Positions 1 to 13,654 of a DNA stretch of 64,000 bases are shown one piece after another (the first letter of the stretch is position 1; each line of letters begins with the position of its first letter). Position numbers and translations under genes: made by a program. The DNA lies in the NCBI GenBank assembly GCA_963771275.1, contig CAVYSW010000009.1:32001-96000 (forward strand), written 5' to 3'. The notes under the pieces were generated by a model. That model was not told the DNA's origin. It worked only from the letters and a program-made list of their open reading frames with translations, and did no database searches. This DNA is from an uncultured Gemmatimonadales bacterium. GTDB lineage: Bacteria; Gemmatimonadota; Gemmatimonadetes; Gemmatimonadales; GWC2-71-9.

Positions 1-1987
1 GGTCGGACGACGCGATGCGGTAGTCCGCCGGCACCGTCGCCGGATCCAGCCGAAAGGCGTGACCGCCGGCCCGGACGTTCTGGAACGAGAACTTGCCGTC
101 GGCGTCGGTCGTCGCCACTTCGCCATCGTCGGTCCAGACGTCGAGGCCGGCCACGCCCGGCTCGTCGCCGCTCTGCACGCCGTCGCCGTTCCGGTCGAGC
201 CACGCCTTGCCGATTACGGCCCGGGTCTCGAGCGGCCAGCTGCTGCGCAGGCGGACCCACGCCACCTGCATCGGCGCCGTGACGCCGCCGCCTTCGGCGG
301 TCGCGTACGCGCGGTTCTCGATCACCTGCTGCTCCGCCGACACGATGGCCACCTGGTAGCGCACCGTGTGGCTGGCGCCGGGGGCGAGCGGCCCGCTCCA
401 GAAGAACGTGAGCACCCGGCCGTCCACGTGCACCGAGTCCGCGCCCAGCGCGCTCCCCGTGGCGTACCGGCCGCCCTCGGGCAGCGAGTCCACGACGCGG
501 AGATCGCCGAGCGGGTTGTCGCCGGTGTTCTGGAGCACCAGCGTGTAGGGCACGGTCTCGCCGAGCCCGACCTCGAGCACGTCGGCCGACTTCTGGAGTC
601 CGAGCTGGTTGGGCAGCAGCCCTACCAGCACGACCGGGGCGGAGAGCGCGGCCGCGGGCGGCGCGTTGGCGGCCGCGACCACCGCGACGTTGCGCACCGT
701 CACCGTGTCGCGGACCTGGTCGGAGACGCGCACCGTGAGCGCGACGCTCACGGAGTCGCCGGGCGCGACGTCGCCCATCGTCCAGGAGAGGACGCCGCCG
801 CTCACGGTAGCGGCCGGTGCGGCGGACACGAAGTCGAGGCCGGGCGGCAGCGTGTCGACCAGCGTGACAGCGCGCGCCGGCATCGTGGGCGAGCGGTTCG
901 CCGCGACGAGCGCGTAGAGCACCTGCTCGCCGATGCGCGCCGTCACGGGGCCCAGCAGGGTGTTCGCGAGGCCGAGCTGCGCGTGCACCACCGTGGTCAC
1001 GGCGGTGTTGGACGTCACCGAGTCGGCGCCGGCGAGCGTGCCGTAGACGGCCCCTGCGCGGTTGGCGATCGGCGTCTGGTCGGCGAGCCCGTTGGCGATC
1101 CGGACCTGGAAGGCGAGGGTGCCGCGCTGCCCACTCGGCAGGTCGCCGAGCGCGAACACCACGCGGTTGCCGGCCGGATCGAACCAGGCGGCGTCGTCCC
1201 CGACCGCATCGGTCAGCGCGGTGCCGCCCCACGTCAGCGACCCCGCGATGTAGGTGGCGCCCGGCGGGATCGGATCGCTGACGACCAGACTCGTTGCCGG
1301 GTTCGTCCCGCTCACGTCGCAGGTGAGCGTGTAGCTCAGCACGTCGCCCGTGGTCGCGGTGGTGCGATCCACCAGCTTGGCGAGCGTCACGAGCACACCC
1401 GCGTCCGGGACCTGCAGCACGTCGAGCACCGCGTCGGCGGCGCCGTCGAACTCGCTCACCGCCGTCACCGTCACCGTGTCGGTCGTCCCGCGGACGGTCG
1501 GGGATCCCGGCACATCCACGGCGGCGAGCACGGACGCGACCGCGCCGGCCGCGAGCGTGAGCCCCTGGATCGCGGGATCCGAGGCGTCGAGCACGCCGTC
1601 GTCGTTGAGGTCGCGGTACAGGGTCACCGCCCAGCCGGTTCGCGACACGGCCGCGAGGCGCAGGCTATCGGTCCCGTTGCCGACGTTCGTGACGGTGTGG
1701 GCGAAGACGACACGGCTGCCGGGGTTGGCCGTCGCGGCGCGCGGCGGCGCCAGGTCGACGCCACCCACCTGGGCCACGGTCACCACCAGCACGTTGGAGC
1801 GCGCGGTGAAGGTGAGTCCGTTCTCGGCCACGTAGGTAGCGTCGGCGACGTTGGAGATCTGGGTGCCCGCGGGCGTCGGGCCCTGGGCGAGCAGGTCGGT
1901 GCCGATCAGGCACAGCACGAGCGCGGCCCCGAACAACGCCATCCCGGGCCGCGACGCGCTCTGCTGGTTTCGGTGTGACCTGCTCAT
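1..1987 (-). CDS. Large secreted multi-DUF11 (TIGR01451-like) protein with SdrD-B-like domain; 3' end lies beyond the window edge
   Basis: Absent from the ORF track because it has no stop in the window. Manual translation from ATG 1987: MSRSHRNQQSASRPGMALFGAALVLCLIGTDLLAQ-GPTPAGTQISNVADATY...; repeats TLAKLVD...SDPIPPGATY...IANRA and LQKSAD...VDSLPEGGRY...IENRA; then VIGKAWLDRNGDGVQSGDEPGVAG...TTDADGKFSF (SdrD-B-like). Confidence 0.85.
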   Translation of the reverse strand, partial: MSRSHRNQQSASRPGMALFGAALVLCLIGTDLLAQGPTPAGTQISNVADATYVAENGLTFTARSNVLVVTVAQVGGVDLAPPRAATANPGSRVVFAHTVTNVGNGTDSLRLAAVSRTGWAVTLYRDLNDDGVLDASDPAIQGLTLAAGAVASVLAAVDVPGSPTVRGTTDTVTVTAVSEFDGAADAVLDVLQVPDAGVLVTLAKLVDRTTATTGDVLSYTLTCDVSGTNPATSLVVSDPIPPGATYIAGSLTWGGTALTDAVGDDAAWFDPAGNRVVFALGDLPSGQRGTLAFQVRIANGLADQTPIANRAGAVYGTLAGADSVTSNTAVTTVVHAQLGLANTLLGPVTARIGEQVLYALVAANRSPTMPARAVTLVDTLPPGLDFVSAAPAATVSGGVLSWTMGDVAPGDSVSVALTVRVSDQVRDTVTVRNVAVVAAANAPPAAALSAPVVLVGLLPNQLGLQKSADVLEVGLGETVPYTLVLQNTGDNPLGDLRVVDSLPEGGRYATGSALGADSVHVDGRVLTFFWSGPLAPGASHTVRYQVAIVSAEQQVIENRAYATAEGGGVTAPMQVAWVRLRSSWPLETRAVIGKAWLDRNGDGVQSGDEPGVAGLDVWTDDGEVATTDADGKFSFQNVRAGGHAFRLDPATVPADYRIASSD

Positions 1988-2019
1988 GGCATCCGCGCTC
2001 CAACGCACAGGCGTAAAGG

Positions 2020-2034
2020 GCACGCTACATGCCA
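2020..2034 (-). promoter_or_regulatory. sigma54 (-24/-12) promoter
   Basis: Minus strand reads TGGCATGTAGCGTGC (GG-N10-GC), about 33 bp upstream of ATG 1987, with an AT-rich tract further upstream (~2050-2090). Confidence 0.7.
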
Positions 2035-2125
2035 GCTCGTGCGCTCTGAGAAATCATCTAAAACGTTATTGATAAACGACTTAGAAACTGACGATTGGGC
2101 TACAACTCGTCCGTCACGGCCGGGG

Positions 2126-2152
2126 GTTACCATTGGTAACCGGCCTGGTAAC
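2126..2152. promoter_or_regulatory. Putative enhancer (bEBP binding site), copy 1
   Basis: GTTAC-cattg-GTAAC-cggcctg-GTAAC, about 90 bp upstream of the sigma54 site; recurs at 4460 and 7025. Confidence 0.7.
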
Positions 2153-2194
2153 GACGCTCGTGCCAGGCACTTGGGGGATCCGGTGCGGGGCGGG

Positions 2195-2249
2195 AGAAAA
2201 GACCGAGGCGGCCGCCTCCGACCCTTGAGATCGGAGAGCGACCGCCCGG
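2195..2249 (-). terminator. Probable intrinsic terminator after the 414-aa subunit gene
   Basis: Minus-strand GC-rich imperfect hairpin (GGGCGGTCGCTCTCCGATC...GGTCGGAGGCGGCCGCCT) followed by CGGTCTTTTCT. Confidence 0.55.
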
Positions 2250-2291
2250 AAGGGAGTCGAGCTGGAGGCCGCCCTCAGGCGGCGGCGCGGT

Positions 2292-3536
2292 CTAGTTCAC
2301 CCGGGCCTGGATCCAGAAGAACCGGGTCGCGCCGGCGCCGAGCGCCACTGTGAGATCGGCATCGACGTCGTTGCCGCTGTTGGCCAGCGTCCACCCGGCC
2401 GAGCCATCGTTGGCCAGCGCGAGGAACGTCAGCTCCGCCGGCAACAGATCGTCCACGTGCACGCTGGTGGCGTTCTGGTCGCCGGCGTTGGTCACGCTCA
2501 CCCGGTACCAGATCACCTCCTGCGGGACGACGCGGTCGGTCGGCCCGATCACGGTGACCTGATCGCTGCGATACACCTGCTTGGCGATGGTCACGCGCGG
2601 GCGGATCACCGTGAGGTCCACGTAGCCGTTGTCGAGCGTGGCCGGCTGCGTCACCGACCGCGCCACCAGGTAGAGCGTGTCCCGTGACCCAACCGCGACC
2701 TCGGCGACCGTGTAGGTCACGTCGATGGACACCGACCCGCCGGTGGGGATCGTCACCCGCGTGCTGTCCGGCGGACCGGCCACGCCATTCACCGTCAGGA
2801 TGCCGATCACGACCGACCCCGGACTCGACGCGAGCAGATCGAACGCCTCGGCGGCGTTGCCGGTATTGTTCACGGTGAACGTCTCGGTGTAGGCCGATGC
2901 CCCGCTCGGCAAGCGCTGGCGATTGACGCCACCGTCCGGCGTCACGGCCACCCCGTAGGCCGCGGGCGGCGAGATGTTCGTGGTCGCGGCATCGCTCATC
3001 GTGCCGTCACGCTGCGATGTCGCCGTCAGCGTGTAGCCGGTGGTCTGGCCCCCCTGGCCGGCGTTCACGTCGTAGATCACCGTGACGGTGAGCGATCCCG
3101 TGATGCCCGCCAGCGACTGCGTGAGCAGCGCCGTGTTCAGCGCCGCCACGCTCGCGTAGACGGTCCCCACGCCGTTGATCTGGTATCCGGTCACGGTGAT
3201 CACCGCGCCGTTCGAGATCGTCTCGCCGACCTGCACCGTGTCGGTGCCGTTCCCGATGTTGGCCACCGTGAACGTGATCGATTGGCCCGACGAGGGCGAC
3301 GCGGGCGTGACCGACGCCACCCCCGTCACGTCGAGACCGGCCTGGAAGCCCACCGTGACCGACACCGAGGCGCTGTCGGGCGCATACAGCCGTCCCGTCG
3401 CATCGCGGTAGTTCACGATCGCCTTGTTGGTGATGACGGTTCCCTCAGGCGTTTGCGCCCGGGCCGGGACGGTCACCATGGCCACGGCGACTGCCGCCAA
3501 CGCCACGGCGCGCATCATCCAATTCGAGTTTCTCAT
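2292..3536 (-). CDS. Secreted DUF11-family protein, 414 aa (candidate major fibre subunit)
   Basis: GGAGG RBS before ATG 3536; signal peptide ending PARA; mature start QTPEGTVITNKAIVNY; two TVxNxGN Ig-like modules; C-terminal DUF11-like domain VTIAKQV...WYRVSVTNAG...VDDLLPAELTF...WIQARVN. Confidence 0.85.
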   Translation of the reverse strand: MRNSNWMMRAVALAAVAVAMVTVPARAQTPEGTVITNKAIVNYRDATGRLYAPDSASVSVTVGFQAGLDVTGVASVTPASPSSGQSITFTVANIGNGTDTVQVGETISNGAVITVTGYQINGVGTVYASVAALNTALLTQSLAGITGSLTVTVIYDVNAGQGGQTTGYTLTATSQRDGTMSDAATTNISPPAAYGVAVTPDGGVNRQRLPSGASAYTETFTVNNTGNAAEAFDLLASSPGSVVIGILTVNGVAGPPDSTRVTIPTGGSVSIDVTYTVAEVAVGSRDTLYLVARSVTQPATLDNGYVDLTVIRPRVTIAKQVYRSDQVTVIGPTDRVVPQEVIWYRVSVTNAGDQNATSVHVDDLLPAELTFLALANDGSAGWTLANSGNDVDADLTVALGAGATRFFWIQARVN

Positions 3537-3586
3537 GTTCGCCTCCACTCTCCCCCCTCAGGTGTTTACCGTTGCTGCGTAGCGCT

Positions 3587-4123
3587 TCACCGACTGGCCG
3601 CGCTGGTATCCGGCCGCGGCTCCGCCCCAGGCAGCCGCGCCCGGAACTCGGCCGTCACCTGGGCGCCGGGCTGCACCCAGCCCTGCACGGTCCAGCGGAC
3701 ATGCGTGTAGCGTTGCACCGGGGCCGGCCGCTGCTGCGGCTTCCCGTCCACCATTACCTCGATCATCGGTTGGGCGGAGAATGTGGCTCCGCCGTCGATG
3801 GAGTACTCGATCAGCGTGTCGTCGCGATCCGTTTTCGCCGACGCGATGACGTAGCGCAGGCCGGACGGGATCGGGTCTTTCAGCTCGATGCTGCGCACTG
3901 GTGTGGCGTTCAGGTTGGTGAACACGAGCCGGTACTCCACGACATCGCCCGGCAACAGCGCGTTCGAATCGGCGAGTCCACGATGTCGCTCGTCGCCCGC
4001 CATGAGATTCACCGCGGTGATGACGAGCGCCTGCGGCTCGCGCTGTTGTGCCGCGACGCGCATCCCCGCCGCCGCCACGACCAGCCCCGCGACCAACCCC
4101 GCCTGCAGTAGTCTCGTGCTCAT
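3587..4123 (-). CDS. Small secreted single DUF11-like domain protein, 178 aa
   Basis: GGAGGAG RBS; MSTRLLQAGLVAGLVVAAAG signal; LLPGDVVEYRLVFTN...KDPIPSGLRY...YSIDGGATF...HVRW...AEFRARL. Confidence 0.85.
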   Translation of the reverse strand: MSTRLLQAGLVAGLVVAAAGMRVAAQQREPQALVITAVNLMAGDERHRGLADSNALLPGDVVEYRLVFTNLNATPVRSIELKDPIPSGLRYVIASAKTDRDDTLIEYSIDGGATFSAQPMIEVMVDGKPQQRPAPVQRYTHVRWTVQGWVQPGAQVTAEFRARLPGAEPRPDTSAASR

Positions 4124-4308
4124 GACTCGGTCTCCTCCGTGCTGCGTCGGCTGGTCCGGCCCCACTTGGCCTTGGCACGCTCCGGTGCGCCTTGCGCCTC
4201 CTGCCATGCGAACGGCACTTCGCACCCGTGGCAGATCACCCATTTGCCCGAGAAATCCCCTCGAGCGTAGTGCGTGCTCGTTCCGCAGTGTGGGCACCGC
4301 AACACCAT
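4120..4308 (-). CDS. 62-aa zinc-ribbon microprotein
   Basis: CAGGAG RBS; MVLRCPHCG...VICHGCEVPF (two CxxC pairs); TGA stop overlaps the ATG of the next gene (ATGA, 4120-4123). Confidence 0.65.
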   Translation of the reverse strand: MVLRCPHCGTSTHYARGDFSGKWVICHGCEVPFAWQEAQGAPERAKAKWGRTSRRSTEETES

Positions 4309-4347
4309 GTGCGACTCCTGTCGTCCAGCTGTTCGGCCGCTAGGGAA

Positions 4348-4362
4348 GCACGGGCCATGCCG
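4348..4362 (-). promoter_or_regulatory. sigma54 (-24/-12) promoter
   Basis: Minus strand reads CGGCATGGCCCGTGC (GG-N10-GC), 40 bp upstream of ATG 4308; AT-rich IHF-like tract at ~4380-4415. Confidence 0.7.
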
Positions 4363-4459
4363 GGTGGCGAGCATCGACCAATATCGTCGTAAGGTATTGT
4401 CATAAATCGTCTTACAGAGATGCCAACCAGGCAGACTGTCTGTCGCTGCGGGATGTCTG

Positions 4460-4486
4460 GTTACCGAAGGTAACGGCCGGGGTAAC
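4460..4486. promoter_or_regulatory. Putative enhancer, copy 2
   Basis: GTTAC-cgaag-GTAAC-ggccggg-GTAAC. Confidence 0.7.
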
Positions 4487-4517
4487 GCGAGATCGGAACC
4501 GGGCTGGTCGAAGGGGA

Positions 4518-6818
4518 CTACTTGATCCGGGCCACGTACTGGAACGTGCACGTGTTGTTGGGGGCCACCGCGCTCAGGTCGTTGAGCAGCATCCAGCGGA
4601 TCCGGTTGACGCACCCATCGTAGCCCGCCAGGGCCCCGCAGCCGAGCGACGCGGGGGTGTAGGTCCACGTCGCGCCGGCGTCGTTGGAGTACGCGACGGC
4701 GGTACTCACACCGGGCGGCAGCGTGTTCACCACCGATCCGACCTTGAACGTCACCTGCCCGGCGATCGAGTCCACCACGGTGACCGCCACGGCATCGATC
4801 GTCCCGGTGTTGACCGCGTCGATCAGATAGGTGAGATCGGTTCCCGGCGCGACGGCCCCACTGGGATTCGCGCTGCGGCTGATCGTCACTTTCGGTCCGC
4901 CGGAAATCGTGACGTCCTCACCCGTGCTCGATGCCGGAGCGTATGCGGCGCTGGTGGTGCCCGCGGCCGTGGTGCGCGCCGGATCGAGGTAGATGGCCCG
5001 CGCCGGATTCTGATAGGTGCCATTCGGCGTGGCGGCGGCGATGTTGGCGGTGAACGTGAGGCGCACGCTGCCGCCACCCGGGATGGAGAATGTGCCCCAG
5101 GTTGGGATGGCCGCCCCGACGGCAGGGTTCGTCGTGCTGGGCCGGGAGGCGCCCCCGCTGAAGACCGGCGCCGCGGTGGACGCGTAGGTGAACCCGGTCG
5201 GGAGCGTGTCGGTGATGGTGAGCGTCCGCGCCGTGTCGCGACCCGCGGCGTTCGCCACCACGACGGTATAGGTCGCCGTGGTCCCGGAGGGGGAATAGGT
5301 CACGGACGGCGTCGACGTGGTCTTCGTGACCGTGAGTGCCGGGACGCACGCGGCGCCGGCCGACGTGCCCGGAATCTGATTCGCCGTCAAGGTCGCGACG
5401 GAGGATCCGGACGCGCCGGCGGTGGCGTTGAACAGATTCCCGGGCGAAACCGTGTATCCCGGAGCACCCCCCGCGACGTCGACGGATGCCGCGCCGGAGA
5501 GCGCGACGAACCCGCCACCACCACCAGCACCGGGACCATGCGGGACCCCTCCGATGTGGGCGTTCCCGCCATCGCCGCCCCGCGCCTGGACACTGAGGCC
5601 GGCGAGCCCGCCGCTGGCGGCATACACGACGACGCTGCCGCCGGCGCCCCCGCCGCCGCCGCCGTCATTCGCGGGCGTGTTCCCCACCTGTCCATTGGCG
5701 CTGATCGCGCCGACGCCGGTCACGCTCCCGGCGCGGATCATCACGATGCCACCACCCGCGCCACCCGAGCTGGCCGTGCCCGAGGAGTTGTTGCGGGTGC
5801 CCGCTCCACCACCGCCCCCCAACACGATCAGGCTAGCGGCGGCGGGGACGCTCGCGCCCCCGCGTCCCCCCACCGCGAGATTCGAGTTCCAGGAGTTGCC
5901 GCCGCGGCCCCCCGCACCCGCATTCCCACCGCCGCCACCGCCGGAGTTCTCGTCGTTGGCGGAGGGACGTCCGTCGGTGCCACCACCCCCCGCGTTTCCC
6001 GGCGCGCCCCGCGCCGTGCTGCCGTTGGGGTATCCCTCCGTGCCGTTGTTGATCAGCGCCGCCGTCACGGGATCGACCACGTAGCGCGGCATGCCCGCGA
6101 TGCCCTCGCCCTTCGACCCGTGGAAGTTGTACGTGGCGAGGTTCCGGTAGTCGGTATTGGAACCGCCAGACCCTCCCGTGAGCCCCCGGCCGCCACCGCC
6201 GCGAAATCCCTTGGCGTCGACGCTCACCGTGCCACCGAGCGTCAACGTCCCGGCGACATCGATCGCGAGAATGCCGCCGGTGGCCCCATTCCAACCCGAC
6301 GCCGTGAGGCCGGAGCTGAGCGACGCGCTGGAGTACTGCGGGACGCGGACCACCTGATAGCGCCGCTGGCCCTGCGATCCCGTGGCCGCCGCGTTGGTGT
6401 AGGAGTAGTTCAGACCGTTCCCTGTCCCGGTTCCCCGGAAGGTGACGGTGCCGCCCGCGAGGCCGACGGTACTGGTCGCCGTCACGTACTCGTACCGGCC
6501 CGCGTTGTTGAGGCTGGTCGCCCCCGCACCGGACCCGTTGTTGGCCCCGTACGCGCTCGAGTTGGTGGAGTTGATCGCCGCGTCCTGCATCTGGATGATC
6601 AGCAGCAAATCGCCCGGCGTGATCCCCACGCTCGCCCCCGTCGCGGACCCGACCACGAGCGACGTGGCGCCCGCGGCGAGATTGGCGGTGGAGCCGGGGA
6701 AGTACGTGTTGACGATGCCGCTGAGCACGCCACCGGGACCGTCCTTGCCCGGGATGCCGCAGACCTGGGCTCCCGCCGGTGTGAGGGGCACGGACGCGAG
6801 CAGCAACGCCACCGTCAC
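4518..6818 (-). CDS. Secreted Gly-rich adhesin-like protein with C-terminal DUF11 domains (candidate fibre tip)
   Basis: Signal-like N-terminus ending PAGA-QVCG; many poly-Gly runs; complete DUF11 (LTVTKT...ITDTLPTGFTY...TPNGTYQNPA) and terminal DUF11-like domain ending FQYVARIK. Start codon uncertain: no in-frame ATG upstream of GTG 6818. Confidence 0.85.
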   Translation of the reverse strand: MTVALLLASVPLTPAGAQVCGIPGKDGPGGVLSGIVNTYFPGSTANLAAGATSLVVGSATGASVGITPGDLLLIIQMQDAAINSTNSSAYGANNGSGAGATSLNNAGRYEYVTATSTVGLAGGTVTFRGTGTGNGLNYSYTNAAATGSQGQRRYQVVRVPQYSSASLSSGLTASGWNGATGGILAIDVAGTLTLGGTVSVDAKGFRGGGGRGLTGGSGGSNTDYRNLATYNFHGSKGEGIAGMPRYVVDPVTAALINNGTEGYPNGSTARGAPGNAGGGGTDGRPSANDENSGGGGGGNAGAGGRGGNSWNSNLAVGGRGGASVPAAASLIVLGGGGGAGTRNNSSGTASSGGAGGGIVMIRAGSVTGVGAISANGQVGNTPANDGGGGGGAGGSVVVYAASGGLAGLSVQARGGDGGNAHIGGVPHGPGAGGGGGFVALSGAASVDVAGGAPGYTVSPGNLFNATAGASGSSVATLTANQIPGTSAGAACVPALTVTKTTSTPSVTYSPSGTTATYTVVVANAAGRDTARTLTITDTLPTGFTYASTAAPVFSGGASRPSTTNPAVGAAIPTWGTFSIPGGGSVRLTFTANIAAATPNGTYQNPARAIYLDPARTTAAGTTSAAYAPASSTGEDVTISGGPKVTISRSANPSGAVAPGTDLTYLIDAVNTGTIDAVAVTVVDSIAGQVTFKVGSVVNTLPPGVSTAVAYSNDAGATWTYTPASLGCGALAGYDGCVNRIRWMLLNDLSAVAPNNTCTFQYVARIK

Positions 6819-6924: not shown

Positions 6925-6939
6925 GCAGGACATGTGCCA
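6925..6939 (-). promoter_or_regulatory. sigma54 (-24/-12) promoter
   Basis: Minus strand reads TGGCACATGTCCTGC (GG-N10-GC), upstream of the Gly-rich gene. Confidence 0.75.
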
Positions 6940-7084: not shown

Positions 7085-8455
<1,371 letters not shown>

Positions 8456-8527
8456 GAGCGCAATACTTGTGCGACAGGCCAGCAATTACAAGGGCTTACG
8501 TGCCCGGGACCCCGGAGCGGGGCGGCG

Positions 8528-8911
8528 ATGGCACCTTCCGTTCGCGTGGTCGTGATCGACGATGATCGCGACCTCCGTCACCTGATCAAGCTCACCATGG
8601 AATTCACCGCCGGCTGGCAGGTCGATGTCGCCGGCGACGGGGAGGAAGGAATTGCCCTCACGCAGCGGGTCCGGCCTGATGTGGTAGTGGCAGATCTCAT
8701 GATGCCGGGGATGGATGGGTACGAGGTCTGCCGCCGCCTCCGGACGGACCCCGCCACCGCGGGAATCCCCGTCATCGTCCTGACGGCCCGCAAGAAAATT
8801 GACGCCGCGCGGCTGACGGAGGCCGGCGCGGCCGGCGTGCTGTTCAAGCCGTTCGAGCCCGACGAGCTCACGACCAGCATCCTGAAATTCATCCGTCCAC
8901 CCGATGCCTGA
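8528..8911 (+). CDS. Single-domain response regulator (REC)
   Basis: MAPSVRVVVIDDD...VVADLMMPGMDG...VLTA...FKPF. Confidence 0.9.
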   Translation: MAPSVRVVVIDDDRDLRHLIKLTMEFTAGWQVDVAGDGEEGIALTQRVRPDVVVADLMMPGMDGYEVCRRLRTDPATAGIPVIVLTARKKIDAARLTEAGAAGVLFKPFEPDELTTSILKFIRPPDA

Positions 8912-9269
8912 GCTACCAATCCCGGCTGATCGCGCGGCCGCACGGCAGGCCCTGGACCGGGAGTTTGCCGCCGGTCTGAGCGAGCGGACCGCGGTGCTCC
9001 GGGCCGCGCTCGCGGCGTGCGCGGACGTGTTCGCGGCGGCCGAGGTCGAGGCACTCTACTACCGCGCACACGCCCTGAAGGGCACGGCGGCGGCGTATGG
9101 GGCCGATGAGCTGGTGGAGCCGGCGGCCCGCCTCGCCGGCATCGGACGCGGCTGGCTGGAGCGGCGGGCCACCGTCGCCAGTGAGCGCGCCGCGGCCGTT
9201 GCGGCACTCGGCGACCTGGAAGCCGCCGTGGCCAGCTACCGCACCCGGATCGGCGCCACCACCCTGTGA
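8904..9269 (+). CDS. Stand-alone Hpt phosphotransfer protein
   Basis: AHALKGTAAAYGA matches the Hpt HxLKG motif; overlaps both neighbours. Confidence 0.85.
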   Translation: MPELPIPADRAAARQALDREFAAGLSERTAVLRAALAACADVFAAAEVEALYYRAHALKGTAAAYGADELVEPAARLAGIGRGWLERRATVASERAAAVAALGDLEAAVASYRTRIGATTL

Positions 9270-11686
9270 CCACACCGCCGCCGCGCGCCGACCGGGCCGC
9301 CGAGCGCCTCGAGATCGTGGGCGAGCTGGCCTCGCTGATCAACACGACGTTCGACCTCCACGAGATCTTCCGGTCGGCAATCGTCAAGCTCCGGCGCGTC
9401 CTCCCGTTCCGGCGCGCGAGCGTCACCCTCCTCTCGGACGACGGCGACCACTACCAGCTCCACACGCTGTATGACGGCGCGCGGGGCGGTTTCCAGGACG
9501 CCGAGCAGCGCTTCCCGCTCGACTACGGCCTGCCGGGGCAGGTGATCCGCTCGGGCGAGGCGATGCGCGTGGACGCGTTCGGCGGGACCGAGGGGATTCG
9601 CCAACCGGGCGAGGGCACGATCTCGGCGCTCATCCTGCCGTTGCGGGTCGACGGAGCGGTGATCGGCTCGCTCAATCTGGGGGCGGAGGAGTCGCTGCGG
9701 TACGGGGACGAAGATCTGGAGCTGGCGCGGCTGTTGGGCCGACAGATCGAGACGTCGCTGCATTACTCGAAGCTGCTGTCCACCATCGAGCGGCAGCGCG
9801 TGGATCTCTCGGCCGAGCATGCACGGGTGCAATTACAGCAGGTCCGGCTCGAGGCGCTGGTCGAGGCCGGGGGCTCCGCGATCATGATGGTCGATGGCGG
9901 GAGGGTGGTGCACGCCAATCGCGCGATGGCCGGGCTGCTGGGCCTGCCCCTCGAGGTCGTCCGCAGCGCCCCGCTCGATCACGTGCACCGGGCGCTGGCA
10001 CGTTCGCTCCGGGACCGGGCAGCCCTCGACGCCCAGGTAGCGGCGATCCAGCCCGGCGGCGAGCCGCTGCGGGATCAAGTCGATCTAGTGTTCCCGCGCC
10101 CGCGCACATTCCGCCGCACCGTCGATCCGGTCGTGAGCCGGTACGGTGAGCCGATGGGGCACCTCGTGGTGTACCGGGACGTCACCCGCGCGGCCGCCGC
10201 CGAGGCCGCGAAGGACGAGTTCGTCTCGATGGTGAGCCACGAGCTGCGGACCCCGCTGACGTCGATCAAGACCTCGCTCAGCCTGCTCACTCGCGGGGCG
10301 GCCGGCCACGTGACAGAGGCGATGGCGGAGTTCATCGCCATCGCGCTCCGCAACCTCGAGCGACTGATCACGCTCGTGGACGATCTGCTCGACCTCTCGC
10401 GGATCGAGAGCGGGCGCCTCGTGACGCACGTGGTGCCGACCTGCGTCGGCGACGTGGCCGCCCACGCCATCGAGATGGTGCGCGCGTTCGCCGACGACCA
10501 GGGCGTCATCCTGGAGTGCGACGTGCACGCGCCGTGCCGGCCCGTCCTGGTCGACCCGGCGCGTCTGGAACAGGTCTTCGTCAATCTGCTGTCGAATGCC
10601 ATCAAGTTCTCGCCGCAGCGAGGGCGGGTGGCTCTGCGGTGGACGGAGGAAGCAGGTGCCCTCGTCACGGAGATCTCCGACGAGGGTCCGGGCATTCCCA
10701 AGGAGCAGCTGGGGGTCGTGTTCGACAAGTTCCGGCAACTCGAGCCGGCCGCGACCCGCGGGCACGGTGGCGTCGGACTTGGGCTCTACATCAGCCGTGC
10801 CATCCTCGCGCAACTCGGTGGCGACCTGTGGGCGGAGAGCGAGGGAGGGCGCGGAACACGATTCTATGTGAAGCTGCCGCTTGCGACCGAAGCGCCGTCG
10901 ACGGCCGCGCCCTCGCAGGACGTCCAGCCGGCGGCAGCGGCCGTGCGGCGCGCGCTCCTGGCGGTCCCGGATCCCGACTTCGCCCTGCTGGTCCGGACAC
11001 AGCTGGAACAGGATGGCATCAGCGTCGAGCTGACCTCCAGCGGCTGGGCTGCCCTCGGCGTGGTCGCGCGGGAACCGCCCGACGTGGTCGTCGCCCACGC
11101 CGAGTTGGAGGACATGCACGGGCTCGAGTTCATGCAGCGCCTCCGGTCCCGACCGGAGGCGGCGAACCTGCCGGCCATCCTGGTGGGCGGCGACCCGATG
11201 CCGGCGCAGGCCATTGCATACGGCGCCGACGCCTGGCTCGCCGCCGATCCCGCCAGCGTCGCGGCCGAGATTCGCCGATTGGGCACGACCCCCCGACGGC
11301 CCGTGATCCTGTTCGTCGAAGACGACCCCGCCGTCCGCGGCGCGCTCGCCCGACTGATCCGGCGGCAGGGGTACGCGGTGGTCGAGGCCACCCACGCGAC
11401 GTTGGGGCTGGAGCTGGCCCGGCGCCGGGTGCCGGACGCGGTCGTGGTCGATCACCACCTCCCGGGGATGTCCGGTCTCGACCTCTTGCGCGCGATGCGG
11501 GACGACCCCGCGTTGGCTGCGGTGCCGGGACTCGTGCTGAGCGGGCACGCCACGCCACAAATCGTGCGTGACGCAGCGGCGCTCGGCGCCGAGTTCCTCC
11601 CCAAGCCCATGGACTGGACGGTGATCGCGCAGGCCGTCGCGCGCCTCATTACGGACCCGAGCGCGCGCCCTCCGTTCGCCCGCTGA
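9266..11686 (+). CDS. Cytoplasmic hybrid histidine kinase (GAF-PAS-HisKA-HATPase-REC-REC)
   Basis: VSHELRTPL H-box; NLLSNAIKF, DEGPGI and GVGLGL boxes; two C-terminal receiver-like domains; no transmembrane segment seen. Confidence 0.93.
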   Translation: MTTPPPRADRAAERLEIVGELASLINTTFDLHEIFRSAIVKLRRVLPFRRASVTLLSDDGDHYQLHTLYDGARGGFQDAEQRFPLDYGLPGQVIRSGEAMRVDAFGGTEGIRQPGEGTISALILPLRVDGAVIGSLNLGAEESLRYGDEDLELARLLGRQIETSLHYSKLLSTIERQRVDLSAEHARVQLQQVRLEALVEAGGSAIMMVDGGRVVHANRAMAGLLGLPLEVVRSAPLDHVHRALARSLRDRAALDAQVAAIQPGGEPLRDQVDLVFPRPRTFRRTVDPVVSRYGEPMGHLVVYRDVTRAAAAEAAKDEFVSMVSHELRTPLTSIKTSLSLLTRGAAGHVTEAMAEFIAIALRNLERLITLVDDLLDLSRIESGRLVTHVVPTCVGDVAAHAIEMVRAFADDQGVILECDVHAPCRPVLVDPARLEQVFVNLLSNAIKFSPQRGRVALRWTEEAGALVTEISDEGPGIPKEQLGVVFDKFRQLEPAATRGHGGVGLGLYISRAILAQLGGDLWAESEGGRGTRFYVKLPLATEAPSTAAPSQDVQPAAAAVRRALLAVPDPDFALLVRTQLEQDGISVELTSSGWAALGVVAREPPDVVVAHAELEDMHGLEFMQRLRSRPEAANLPAILVGGDPMPAQAIAYGADAWLAADPASVAAEIRRLGTTPRRPVILFVEDDPAVRGALARLIRRQGYAVVEATHATLGLELARRRVPDAVVVDHHLPGMSGLDLLRAMRDDPALAAVPGLVLSGHATPQIVRDAAALGAEFLPKPMDWTVIAQAVARLITDPSARPPFAR

Positions 11687-11698
11687 GCCGCCCGCTCC

Positions 11699-13654
11699 CT
11701 ACGGCAGCTTGACCGGCGTCGCCAGCAGGTAGGTCTCGATCGTTCGCACCTTGCCCGCCGGCCAGGTGCTGTGCTTGGCGCTCCACGCGTACGCCGTCGT
11801 GTCGAGCCCGATGCCCTCGTGGTACAGCACGGCGCGATCGGGGTCGTACAGGTTCCACAGCCCGTGCGTGTCGTAGTTGGCCGACACGATGGCGCTGCGC
11901 CGCCGGCCGGTGGGCATGTGCAGCACCACGACGCTGGTGAACGCGGCGTCCTCCTGGAAGCTCAGGTCCGGCCGGACCACGTAGTCGCCCGACTCGGCCA
12001 GCGCGTAGCCCGACAGGATCGACTCGCGGAACAGCAGTTGATGCTCCAGCAGGCCCTCGACCTTGGCGATCTGCGCCTTGAGCCGGGCCTGCTGGAACGA
12101 CACCACCAGCTCGAGCACGGACTTGAAGAACGCCACCGTCGCCATCTGACGCGACCAGGCGGCGTTCATCCGTCCCTTCATGTCCGAGAGCGAAGCTCCC
12201 ATCCCGTCCCCCAATGACGACCGGGAGGCCGCCTCGCTGCGATACTGGTTGGAGAGATTCTGATAGCGGTTCGACTCCTGGGTGGCCCAGGTGCTCGATC
12301 CGTACCCGCCGGTCCCGCCGCCGCCCCGGAGCCCGGTGGACAGGTCGGCGATCTCCGTCTGGAGCCGCGGGATGGCGGCGTCGAGCCCCACGAGGCTCGC
12401 CTTCTGGGAAAGCGGGGTCACGCCCACGCGATTGCGCACCGCCCCCGTCGCGGTGTCCAGCGCCACGATCAGGTACTCGCCGATGAAGACGACGCGATCG
12501 GGGTAGGCCCGGAGCCGCACCGGATAGAGCCGCGCGTTGGGCGCCACGGCCACGTCGAGCAGCGGCTCACCGGTCACGGCGTTGAACGCGAGCACGTGAT
12601 CGGACGTGGCAGCGAACAGGCGGCGGCCTACCCGCACCAGGTTGCTCACCGTGGGCAGCACGGTGCGGCGGTGCCAGCGGGCGGTCCCCGCCGCGCGGTC
12701 CAGCGCGCTCAGCACGAACGCACCGGTTCCCGGCAGCCGCTGGCGGCCCGCGGCGTCGGCGATCCCGCGGAGATACACAGTCTCGCTATCAGGGTAGATG
12801 TTGGTGATCGCGGTGTAGCCGTCGGCGGCGTAGGTCCAGCGGGTGGCCCCGGTTTCCAGGTCGAGGGCCAAGACGGCCGCGCCCCGCCCCACGTAGAGCG
12901 TGGTCTCGTCCGTCTGGGGCGGCGGGTCGTCGGGCGCGAGCGTGAGGTCGGGCCGGGCCCACACGACCGCGCCGTCTTCCAGCCGCACCCGTGCCACGCC
13001 CTCGTAGAACAGCAGCGCGCCGTCGCTCCAGGTGAGGACCGAGTGGGTGGTGTCGTCGGGCGCCACCTTGAAGGCCGCGCTCCAGGCGTCACGCCCGTCC
13101 GACAGGCCGAGGGCCATGACGTCGACCTTGTCCTTGCGGCGCCGCTCGAGCAGCAGCCGGTCGGCCGCCGGAGCGGGACGCGCCTCGACGTCCTCGCCCT
13201 TGAACGACCGCTTCCAGCGCTCCTTGCCGGTCTCGCTTTCCACCACGCTCAGCGCGTACTTCTTCTCCCCGACGGTCGAGATCACGATCCCGTCGTCCAG
13301 CACGAGCAGCGGCTGGGACGTGCCCTCGGCATCGCGCCGCACGCGCCACAGCACCGCGCCGTCCTCCAGCCGGACCAGCAGGAATTCCGTGTTGGGGACC
13401 TGGGCGTCGTCCTTGCGCAGGCCCACCAGCAGGCGTCCCCTGCCGGCCGGCCGCATCAGGTCGACGCGCGCGGCGCCGAGCGGCAGCTTCCACAGCGGCG
13501 CCACTTGCCGAGCCGCCTGGCGCGCGATCACCGGGTACGGCGCATCCGGCTTCACCTGATCCTGCGCCGTGGCCGGAGCCGGAGCGCCCGCGATGGTCCA
13601 CGCGGACGCGATCACGCCGGCCGCCCGCAGCACGCTCCCCAGCGGCGATCGCAT
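11699..13654 (-). CDS. Secreted PQQ-like beta-propeller repeat protein
   Basis: Signal peptide; repeated xxD/ExxT/DGxxxW motifs (EDGAVLW, ETGKERW, SDGRDAW, ETGATRW). Confidence 0.8.
   Translation of the reverse strand: MRSPLGSVLRAAGVIASAWTIAGAPAPATAQDQVKPDAPYPVIARQAARQVAPLWKLPLGAARVDLMRPAGRGRLLVGLRKDDAQVPNTEFLLVRLEDGAVLWRVRRDAEGTSQPLLVLDDGIVISTVGEKKYALSVVESETGKERWKRSFKGEDVEARPAPAADRLLLERRRKDKVDVMALGLSDGRDAWSAAFKVAPDDTTHSVLTWSDGALLFYEGVARVRLEDGAVVWARPDLTLAPDDPPPQTDETTLYVGRGAAVLALDLETGATRWTYAADGYTAITNIYPDSETVYLRGIADAAGRQRLPGTGAFVLSALDRAAGTARWHRRTVLPTVSNLVRVGRRLFAATSDHVLAFNAVTGEPLLDVAVAPNARLYPVRLRAYPDRVVFIGEYLIVALDTATGAVRNRVGVTPLSQKASLVGLDAAIPRLQTEIADLSTGLRGGGGTGGYGSSTWATQESNRYQNLSNQYRSEAASRSSLGDGMGASLSDMKGRMNAAWSRQMATVAFFKSVLELVVSFQQARLKAQIAKVEGLLEHQLLFRESILSGYALAESGDYVVRPDLSFQEDAAFTSVVVLHMPTGRRRSAIVSANYDTHGLWNLYDPDRAVLYHEGIGLDTTAYAWSAKHSTWPAGKVRTIETYLLATPVKLP

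Follow-up and report, generated by a model that had tools for sequence, protein, structure and literature searches.

A four-gene operon with a putatively split CLIPPER (DUF11) domain in a Gemmatimonadales genome: candidate parts of a self-locking fibre

We analysed a stretch of 64,000 nucleotides (nt) from an uncultured Gemmatimonadales bacterium (assembly GCA_963771275.1, contig CAVYSW010000009.1; G000:C9:32001-96000), the source genome of which is 96.7% complete; this whole stretch is referred to below as the window. Four minus-strand genes lie within positions 1-6818, encoding proteins of 766, 178 and 414 amino acids (aa) and the start of a large protein, i.e., the tip, small, shaft and base proteins, respectively. 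A preliminary description of this DNA had proposed that tip, shaft and base build a fibre; these three genes are present, but the fourth, at 3587..4123 (178 aa), had been overlooked. The genes and their relevant parts are as follows.

4518..6818, minus strand: tip protein, 766 aa, with a leader, a Gly-rich head (residues 24-443), a complete DUF11 domain (495-608) and a strand-less putative acceptor domain
4521..4895, minus strand: putative tip acceptor domain, residues 642-766, ending ...FQYVARIK and stop where an Asn hairpin would be expected
3587..4123, minus strand: small protein, 178 aa from MSTRLL, with a leader and one strand-less DUF11 domain of the tip type
2292..3536, minus strand: shaft protein, 414 aa, with a leader (1-27), a putative donor hairpin (28-62), an immunoglobulin (Ig)-like domain D1 (63-192), D2 (195-312) and a putative acceptor domain D3 (313-414)
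3351..3455, minus strand: putative shaft donor hairpin, residues 28-62, QTPEGTVITNKAIVNY...SASVSVTV, with the Asn37 codon at 3426-3428
2295..2600, minus strand: putative shaft acceptor D3, residues 313-414, with the Lys319 codon at 2580-2582 and the Asp363 codon at 2448-2450
1..2023, minus strand: N-terminal 674 residues of the base protein, which has 2044 aa and continues left to G000:C9:27889
1766..1882, minus strand: putative base donor hairpin, residues 48-86, GPTPAGTQISNVADATY..., after LLAQ, with the Asn58 codon at 1850-1852
989..1390, minus strand: base DUF11 domain 1, residues 212-345, with K216...D250...N321, contiguous here

Pfam and NCBIfam scans placed DUF11, a family now named CLIPPER, on all four proteins. 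With the Pfam profile PF01345 (cut-off 24.6 bits) the tip, shaft and base proteins scored 39.4, 33.1 and 121.2 bits, respectively, and the small protein 19.8 bits, i.e., below the cut-off; with TIGR01451 (cut-off 24 bits) the small protein scored 40.7 bits. Every motif string read in the preliminary description was located in its place in the minus-strand open reading frames (ORFs). A contiguous Lys/Asp/Asn triad is present in the tip domain at residues 495-608 (LTVTK at 495, ITDTLP at 535 and YQNPARAIY at 602, giving K499, D537 and N604 by motif position) as well as in base domains 1 and 3. The Lys...Asp...Asn order that had been ascribed to complete domains was thus borne out by VTLAK/VSDPIP/IANRAG and LGLQK/VVDSLP/IENRAY of the base, but not by base domain 2, in which Asn replaces the Lys (LGLANT). 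No contiguous triad is present in the shaft, tip and small proteins at their C-termini, where the final domain ends before the Asn strands.

Complete DUF11 domains close with two strands, e.g., TPIANRAGAVY-GTLAGAD-SVTSNTAVTTVV, and the donor is for this reason best described as a hairpin. The Asn-bearing N-terminus that had been noticed after the signal peptide is therefore real, but it comprises a two-strand hairpin rather than one strand. By gene, the tip and small proteins are acceptor-only, the shaft combines donor and acceptor, and the base is donor-only. The tip/shaft/base valence logic of the preliminary description stands on this account, its layout being kept in the Gemmatimonadota loci and in other phyla.

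In the shaft protein, D3 carries the motifs VTIAK (K319) and VDDLLP (D363) and ends at WIQARVN and stop, with the last two strands absent. Among 120 shaft homologues of 50-100% identity, N37, T33, I35 and D45 are each kept in 120/120, D363 in 120/120 and K319 in 119/120, and the protein ends at the same column in 119/120; the Lys, Asp and Asn positions, on the conservation of which the original proposal had been made to depend, are thus nearly invariant. A profile of complete DUF11 domains covers the shaft C-terminus to about position 96 of 131, i.e., just short of the Asn strands, and the counterpart of D363 in PDB 9IFR is, by alignment, the Asp of ...LNDTL.... As judged from these alignments, the arrangement of the motifs exceeds chance. 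By mutual information, the two hairpin strands covary (pairs 36-55/56/59 and 38-55/56/57/59), as expected for two strands that pair with each other. In fold searches of the shaft models the best single-domain structural matches begin at residues 63-66; D1 is therefore complete as a fold even when the hairpin is left out.

The hairpin and first domain of the shaft (residues 25-125) also gave a match of 18.1 bits to the NCBIfam "choice-of-anchor T" model NF041740 (cut-off 70), and residues 46-127 of an Oligosphaera protein (L054:11443-13251) one of 48.4 bits, likewise below the cut-off. These sub-threshold matches hint at a link to another unstudied surface-protein family.

The base protein begins with a leader, the hairpin (residues 48-86) and an Ig-like domain, followed by three complete DUF11 domains and an SdrD_B region (607-675). 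Beyond the left edge of the window lies an OmpA domain at residues 754-849, which scored 71.7 bits with PF00691 (cut-off 27.2) and spans the whole profile (positions 1-98 of 98). It is followed by a conserved module that takes up roughly the last 1050 residues (~990-2044). One motif is common to the shaft and base hairpins, and the base Asn position is occupied by N in 14/18 proteins, by S in 3 and by A in 1. An Asn-strand motif was found at residues 16-110 in 40/54 long leader-bearing homologues, compared with 2.2 in shuffled sequences; control windows gave 0-3, and one DUF11-rich window 13. In one genome (G046) the base gene is split into three ORFs: AAGTT-type peptide repeats (TAAGTTAAGTT...) lie mid-gene at L016:8776-9837 on the minus strand, followed by an out-of-frame-looking tail, which is probably due to a frameshift or assembly problem in the repeat linker.

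The tip protein has no N-terminal hairpin. Its head (residues 24-443) resembles AgmC_N (NCBIfam gliding_AgmC_N, 125.8 bits, below the cut-off of 275), and the protein also has a DUF7507 match of 29.6 bits. Tip heads vary by locus, with PATR repeats in 3, cadherin in 1, DUF7933/SdrD_B in 1 and no recognised domain in the rest; judged by sequence, this locus-to-locus variation is the pattern of a tip adhesin. The acceptor ends at the same column in 17/17 tip ORFs. These ORFs come from 16 loci, and their bond position is occupied by Lys in 10, by Arg in 2 and by Asn in 5; the tip of this genome has Arg646 (VTISRS) with the Asp present (VVDSIA). Read from its first start codon, the tip leader (6765-6818, minus strand) has 18 residues and no basic n-region (MTVALLLASVPLTPAGAQ before VCG); the leader of a tip homologue, P0273, is longer and ordinary, and the true tip start may be elsewhere. 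In two genomes tip genes lie downstream of the base gene rather than upstream (L020:12631-15960 in G118; L023:12682-15981 in G149). G118 has two consecutive tips, with Asn at the bond position in one and Lys in the other, and one of them has cadherin domains.

The shaft was found in 19/201 sampled Gemmatimonadota genomes, including 17/95 of its own family. The gene order small-shaft-base is kept in 18/18 Gemmatimonadota loci examined, the small gene always lying immediately upstream of the shaft gene (18/18). In 16/18 a tip gene adjoins, the product of which combines a head that varies with a strand-less last domain that is conserved. In the DNA around the loci, only a sigma-54 activator recurs as a further partner gene (9/17 other Gemmatimonadota loci). 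A genome scan with a closer base-module alignment yielded 79 loci outside this phylum, in Thermodesulfobacteriota, Nitrospirota, Brocadiaceae, Lentisphaerota, Verrucomicrobiota, Omnitrophota, Fidelibacterota, Bacteroidota and Ignavibacteria; among the carriers are the cultured strains Oligosphaera ethanolica DSM 24202 and Desulfatibacillum alkenivorans DSM 16219. In all, at least eight further phyla have the operon. Small-protein homologues are encoded in 39 of the 79 loci, and in 37/39 a shaft-like gene comes next, no more than 400 nt away, the product of which starts TPAGTxIxNQA..DY.DANGN and ends ...FQVTID and stop. In the ten shafts read that are of Desulfobacterota, Nitrospirota, Lentisphaerota or Verrucomicrobiota type, K and D are both kept.

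The strongest case for complementation between chains is made by genome comparison, from loci in which the split domain has undergone fission or fusion. In three genomes (G023, G152 and G118; loci L019, L030 and L020, respectively), base domain 1 is cut in the loop before the Asn strand. The product of the first split gene (~310 aa) consists of a leader, a hairpin, an Ig domain and a DUF11 domain in which K and D are present, and its last residues are ...FQVRVDG; that of the second has a leader of its own and then QVMTNTAGGTYDTFAGTDSVVSN..., orthologous to the internal TPIANRAGAVYGTLAGADSVTSN... of the genome studied here. The start of the second gene overlaps the preceding stop (ATGGCTAG in L019; a GTG 14 nt before the stop in L020). 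The two products would have to join, since domain 1 is otherwise not whole. The reverse event was found in G069 (L031) and independently in P0023 (683 aa), in which a shaft ending ...FFWIRV runs without a leader into a base-type hairpin. This natural fusion joins the shaft acceptor to the base hairpin and identifies the two as partners. A protein of 864 aa (P0272) was considered as a second fusion and rejected as a read-through or gene-call artefact, as a base leader remains between its parts. Fission and fusion at the hairpin boundary show, at the level of gene sequence, that the hairpin and the strand-less domain correspond to halves of one domain carried on separate chains.

Taken together, the analysis establishes the domain anatomy, its conservation, the synteny, and the fission and fusion of the genes. 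The observation made in the preliminary description is thereby confirmed, and its interpretation partly supported. We put at roughly 60% the probability that the products of the four genes assemble into a fibre in which a single CLIPPER (DUF11) isopeptide domain is shared out between neighbouring polypeptides. In such a fibre all four proteins would be exported by Sec. The hairpin at the mature N-terminus of the shaft would represent the last two DUF11 strands with the reactive Asn37, and the last domain, with a reactive Lys319 and a catalytic Asp363, would await two strands. The fold would be completed when the last domain, left open in one chain, takes up the hairpin of a second chain, upon which Lys and Asn would react by themselves under the influence of the Asp, as in intact CLIPPER domains, locking the subunits head to tail. 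The tip, with its variable head, an acceptor and no hairpin, could cap only the end that exposes a hairpin, and the base, with a hairpin and complete domains only, could fill only the last open acceptor. The predicted order of the chain is thus tip, shaft (n copies), base, with the base tying the chain to peptidoglycan by OmpA and to the outer membrane by its large C-terminal module. Physical complementation, the covalent bond, more than one shaft per fibre, a surface location, the direction of growth and the role of the barrel are all points that we infer.

The small protein would have a separate part. It has neither a donor hairpin nor a Lys at the bond position; the Lys is absent in 18/18 loci, and the Asp position alternates between D and N. 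Given that its acceptor cannot lock and that it is always encoded before the shaft, the small protein is most plausibly interpreted as holding free hairpins in a reversible manner, i.e., as a chaperone or a provisional cap. After a short variable tail, seven of the 18 small proteins end ...AK (L015, L017, L022, L025, L026, L027 and L029); that of the window ends ...AASR.

Several results weigh against the proposed fibre, and they bear in the first place on whether the hairpin is donated at all. In an AlphaFold2 (AF2) monomer model of the full shaft, the mean predicted local distance difference test (pLDDT) was 90, the predicted template modelling score (pTM) 0.70 and the hairpin pLDDT 91-93; with residues 28-312 only, i.e., without D3, the hairpin pLDDT was 89-93 and the pTM 0.80. 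In these models the hairpin thus does not appear to depend on the acceptor, and it may pack on its own D1. This touches an outcome that the preliminary description had itself named as contrary to its proposal, the folding of the N-terminal strand into its own first domain. A profile built from 13 internal hairpins scored the shaft N-termini at a median of -0.4 bits, compared with -1.4 bits for shuffled sequences, the best shuffle reaching 8.3 bits; this profile gave positional enrichment only, its best match starting at residues 15-55 in 68/120 shafts. Covariation between the hairpin and D3 accounted for 1 pair in the top 40 compared with 17.9 expected by share, in a mutual-information test on 115 non-redundant sequences that had low power owing to the near-invariant hairpin.

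These three results, i.e., the confident hairpin without D3, the missing hairpin-to-D3 covariation and the non-significant hairpin profile, speak for an alternative without strand donation, the hairpin being fixed to its own first domain, the strand-less domains being a shortened DUF11 variant and the proteins being separate envelope or surface proteins that share an operon. However, that explanation accounts neither for the common end column of three protein classes across phyla, nor for the invariant placement of Asn on the hairpin and of Lys and Asp on the truncated domain, nor for the loop-located cut with a new leader in three genomes, and D1 matches known folds without the hairpin. We regard it as distinctly unlikely.

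The same models bear on a further possibility, in which the shaft hairpin completes the last domain of its own chain and locks the monomer as a ring. Donor and acceptor are indeed on one chain, AF2 monomers often self-complement, and the full model is confident throughout. The confidence of the hairpin does not come from docking into its own D3, since it is nearly the same without D3, which argues against ring closure, as does a pTM of 0.70 with D3 versus 0.80 without. Fold searches with two shaft models returned only generic tandem Ig, macroglobulin and AgI/II-like matches, none of them decisive, and D2-D3 superposes on an extended tandem, BspA (Z 9.6, root-mean-square deviation 4.2 over 204 residues). 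Were the shaft closed into a ring, moreover, neither the base hairpin nor the tip acceptor would have a partner, contrary to the fusion. Ring closure thus appears highly improbable.

Even with donation between chains, the product might be a one-to-one-to-one complex, in which a single shaft serves as adaptor between tip and base, giving a three-piece adhesin stalk and no polymer. In favour of such a complex, no observation requires more than one shaft per assembly; the fusion proves shaft-to-base pairing only, and some genomes encode an extra adaptor of ~310 aa with its own donor and acceptor, as if specific pairs set the order. Yet N37 and K319 are invariant in spite of Lys-less tips (7/17) and Asn-less base hairpins (4/18), and are therefore most simply understood as mutual partners on different shafts; this invariance points to a shaft-to-shaft bond. 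In addition, the shaft and base hairpins share their motif, so that a D3 accepting one should accept the other, and P0273 is a tip with an acceptor of the shaft-D3 type (K and D present, no hairpin), i.e., a D3-type acceptor does occur on a tip. On balance, a stalk limited to three pieces seems unlikely, to much the same degree as an absence of strand donation.

A second group of contrary results concerns the covalent step of the proposed fibre. The tip of this genome has Arg where a Lys would be needed and is thus unable to form a Lys-Asn bond, unlike the Lys acceptor envisaged in the preliminary description. Six Bacteroidota/Ignavibacteria-type shafts read by eye have neither K nor D. In G069 both Lys residues are lost; the fused shaft is the sole one of the 120 with a substitution at K319 (by Q), and the Asn of its hairpin is replaced by Ser. 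Contiguous domain 1 keeps K and N in 13/13 unsplit base proteins, and the loss of both in the fusion is therefore a single event and not a rule. From the tip Arg, the six shafts without K and D, and the Lys losses of G069, the covalent step does not appear to be universal. In six Bacteroidota/Ignavibacteria loci (L073, L091, L100, L103, L108 and L109) the shaft-like proteins keep the Asn hairpin, with the acceptor Lys absent and Asn in place of the Asp, and their sequences look like those of a non-covalent form. In these loci the barrel module is a separate protein.

A third difficulty lies in the topology of the base. OmpA stands between stalk and barrel, and an outside stalk would therefore require the chain to cross the outer membrane; a candidate linker for such a crossing lies at about residues 680-750. 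An OmpA or barrel domain had been anticipated to the left of position 1, and of these OmpA was found, while the barrel is weakly supported. The C-terminal module consists of a Big/invasin-like part and a probable large beta-barrel: Pfam matches to Invasin_D3/Big_1 were obtained in 8/28 module homologues, and those to barrel families, in 6/28, were all sub-threshold (SlpA_C 30.6 vs 35; OMP_b-brl 28.0 vs 28.7). By a heuristic of our own, the last 760 residues of the base contain about 27 beta-amphipathic segments. PDB sequence searches returned no relative of the module below E 0.3. The module has 1722 relatives, counted as cluster representatives at 50% identity, at E <= 0.001 and 347 at E <= 1e-30, and is found alone (~1000-1170 aa, with its own leader) or after DUF11 stalks.

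A wider, more tentative version of the fibre proposal can be put forward, the chances of which we place a little short of even. Under this version the operon would be one member of a widespread and unrecognised class of pili of two-membrane bacteria, in Gemmatimonadota, Thermodesulfobacteriota, Nitrospirota, Planctomycetota, Lentisphaerota, Verrucomicrobiota, Fidelibacterota, Bacteroidota and others. Its split CLIPPER domain would be a self-ligating natural tag/catcher that needs no sortase, ATP or chaperone-usher system, the giant barrel would act at once as export pore, terminator and anchor to the cell wall, and the Lys-less small protein, as a "headless tip", would be a reversible chaperone passing the hairpin on to an acceptor in which it is permanently locked.

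The elements of this proposal have relatives among known systems. The Lys-Asp-Asn isopeptide bond of the CLIPPER/DUF11 family is seen in crystal structure 9IFR (PMC12617251). The CLIPPER fibrillar adhesins share with the present proteins the domain family, the Lys...Asp...Asn order and the aligned Asp, with complete copies in tip and base. According to the same source, however, their triad lies within one domain and stabilises the stalk, whereas here the Asn strands are on a different polypeptide or at the opposite end of the same chain, and the bond would join chains; the words "split" and "donor" do not occur in its text.

A published principle of this kind is the "donor strand exchange and lock" of BsaA, a TasA-family protein of Clostridium perfringens (bioRxiv 10.1101/2024.11.04.621531). 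As in our proposal, an N-terminal segment enters the sheet of the next subunit and a self-formed intermolecular isopeptide bond follows; mutation of the bond residues abolished the oligomers (bioRxiv 10.1101/2024.11.04.621531). BsaA differs in fold and family, in its monoderm host, and in that one disordered strand is exchanged, whereas here the donor would be a hairpin, preformed and belonging to a split domain of CnaA-like type; as far as that source goes, there is neither an outer-membrane barrel nor a tip/base set. No TasA/camelysin family was found among the Pfam and NCBIfam matches of the four proteins. The archaeal thread Saci_0406 likewise has an N-terminal donor strand, an apparent covalent subunit link and no sortase (PMC9715654). 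In the thread, however, the link runs from the alpha-amine of Asp24 to Asn57 of subunit n+2 and is not of the Lys-Asp-Asn kind, and the system described there is archaeal, with no Pfam domain and a single subunit type (PMC9715654). Exchange and lock as a principle is thus already published for BsaA, and a covalent donor-strand filament for the archaeal threads.

Chaperone-usher pili (type 1 and P) offer a parallel in logic but not in parts: a variable-head tip with a pilin-like acceptor, rod subunits with an N-terminal donor and an incomplete Ig fold, a terminator or anchor and an outer-membrane barrel (PMC11821415). They differ in that here two strands would be donated instead of one, a covalent lock is likely, and the terminal subunit forms one protein with the barrel-like module and OmpA. 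The modelled Tat-fimbriae of Haloarcula hispanica also comprise a tip, adapter, core and anchor, each linked to the next through an N-terminal donor strand, but they are archaeal and Tat-exported with unrelated subunits, and the word "isopeptide" is absent from the text (PMC11821415). The preliminary description had seen no sortase or classical chaperone-usher gene, and this holds for the genome as assembled (96.7% complete): the PapD-like chaperone PF00345 had no match there, control genomes being matched, and neither had the usher PF00577 or the sortase PF04203. No sorting signal was found in the four sequences as read, all of which end in a domain or a barrel-like module. As for the type V pili of Bacteroidota, which are built from FimA/Mfa-type lipoprotein pilins, Pfam and NCBIfam gave no FimA-type family match, and in the sequences read the cleavage site of the leader is not marked by a lipobox Cys.

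In SpyTag/SpyCatcher and related pairs, isopeptide domains have been cut so that the reactive residues lie on separate pieces that religate by themselves. Those are man-made splits of CnaB type, whereas here a natural, CnaA-like split that builds a structure would apply. A split DUF11/CLIPPER fibre was not described in the literature searched, supplements lying outside the search. If the proposal is true, it would add a further route to surface fibres in two-membrane bacteria, in which complementation is made irreversible by a subunit-formed bond. It would also explain many unannotated "DUF11 repeat" genes, the base module alone numbering 1722 clusters, and give a role to a giant outer-membrane protein family that has no sequence relative among solved structures. 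Finally, it would provide two-strand tag/catcher pairs that have co-evolved in nature and have a fold that protein ligation has not so far drawn upon.

Two features upstream of the tip gene are relevant to its expression.

6925..6939, minus strand: sigma-54-like -24/-12 element, TGGCACATGTCCTGC, with the start codon of the tip gene about 107 nt downstream
7085..8485, minus strand: sigma-54-dependent response regulator (REC, AAA+ sigma-54 activator, Fis HTH), directly upstream

The element TGGCACATGTCCTGC has one mismatch to TGGCAC-N5-TTGC, only three sites in the window come this close, and sigma-54-like sites are not enriched in the window (40 found vs 57 expected at <=2 mismatches); on this weak evidence it is a possible promoter of the operon. 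The response regulator is a possible regulator of the operon, which may be under two-component, sigma-54 control. Among the 14 ORFs inspected between 7085 and 29387, there was no Glt/Agl-type motor. Divergent from the response regulator gene are a small ORF and a hybrid histidine kinase (GAF-PAS-HisKA-HATPase-REC) at 8904-11686 on the plus strand, and a 651-aa protein with a BamB-like PQQ_2 beta-propeller is encoded at 11699-13654 on the minus strand, 5 kb from the operon.

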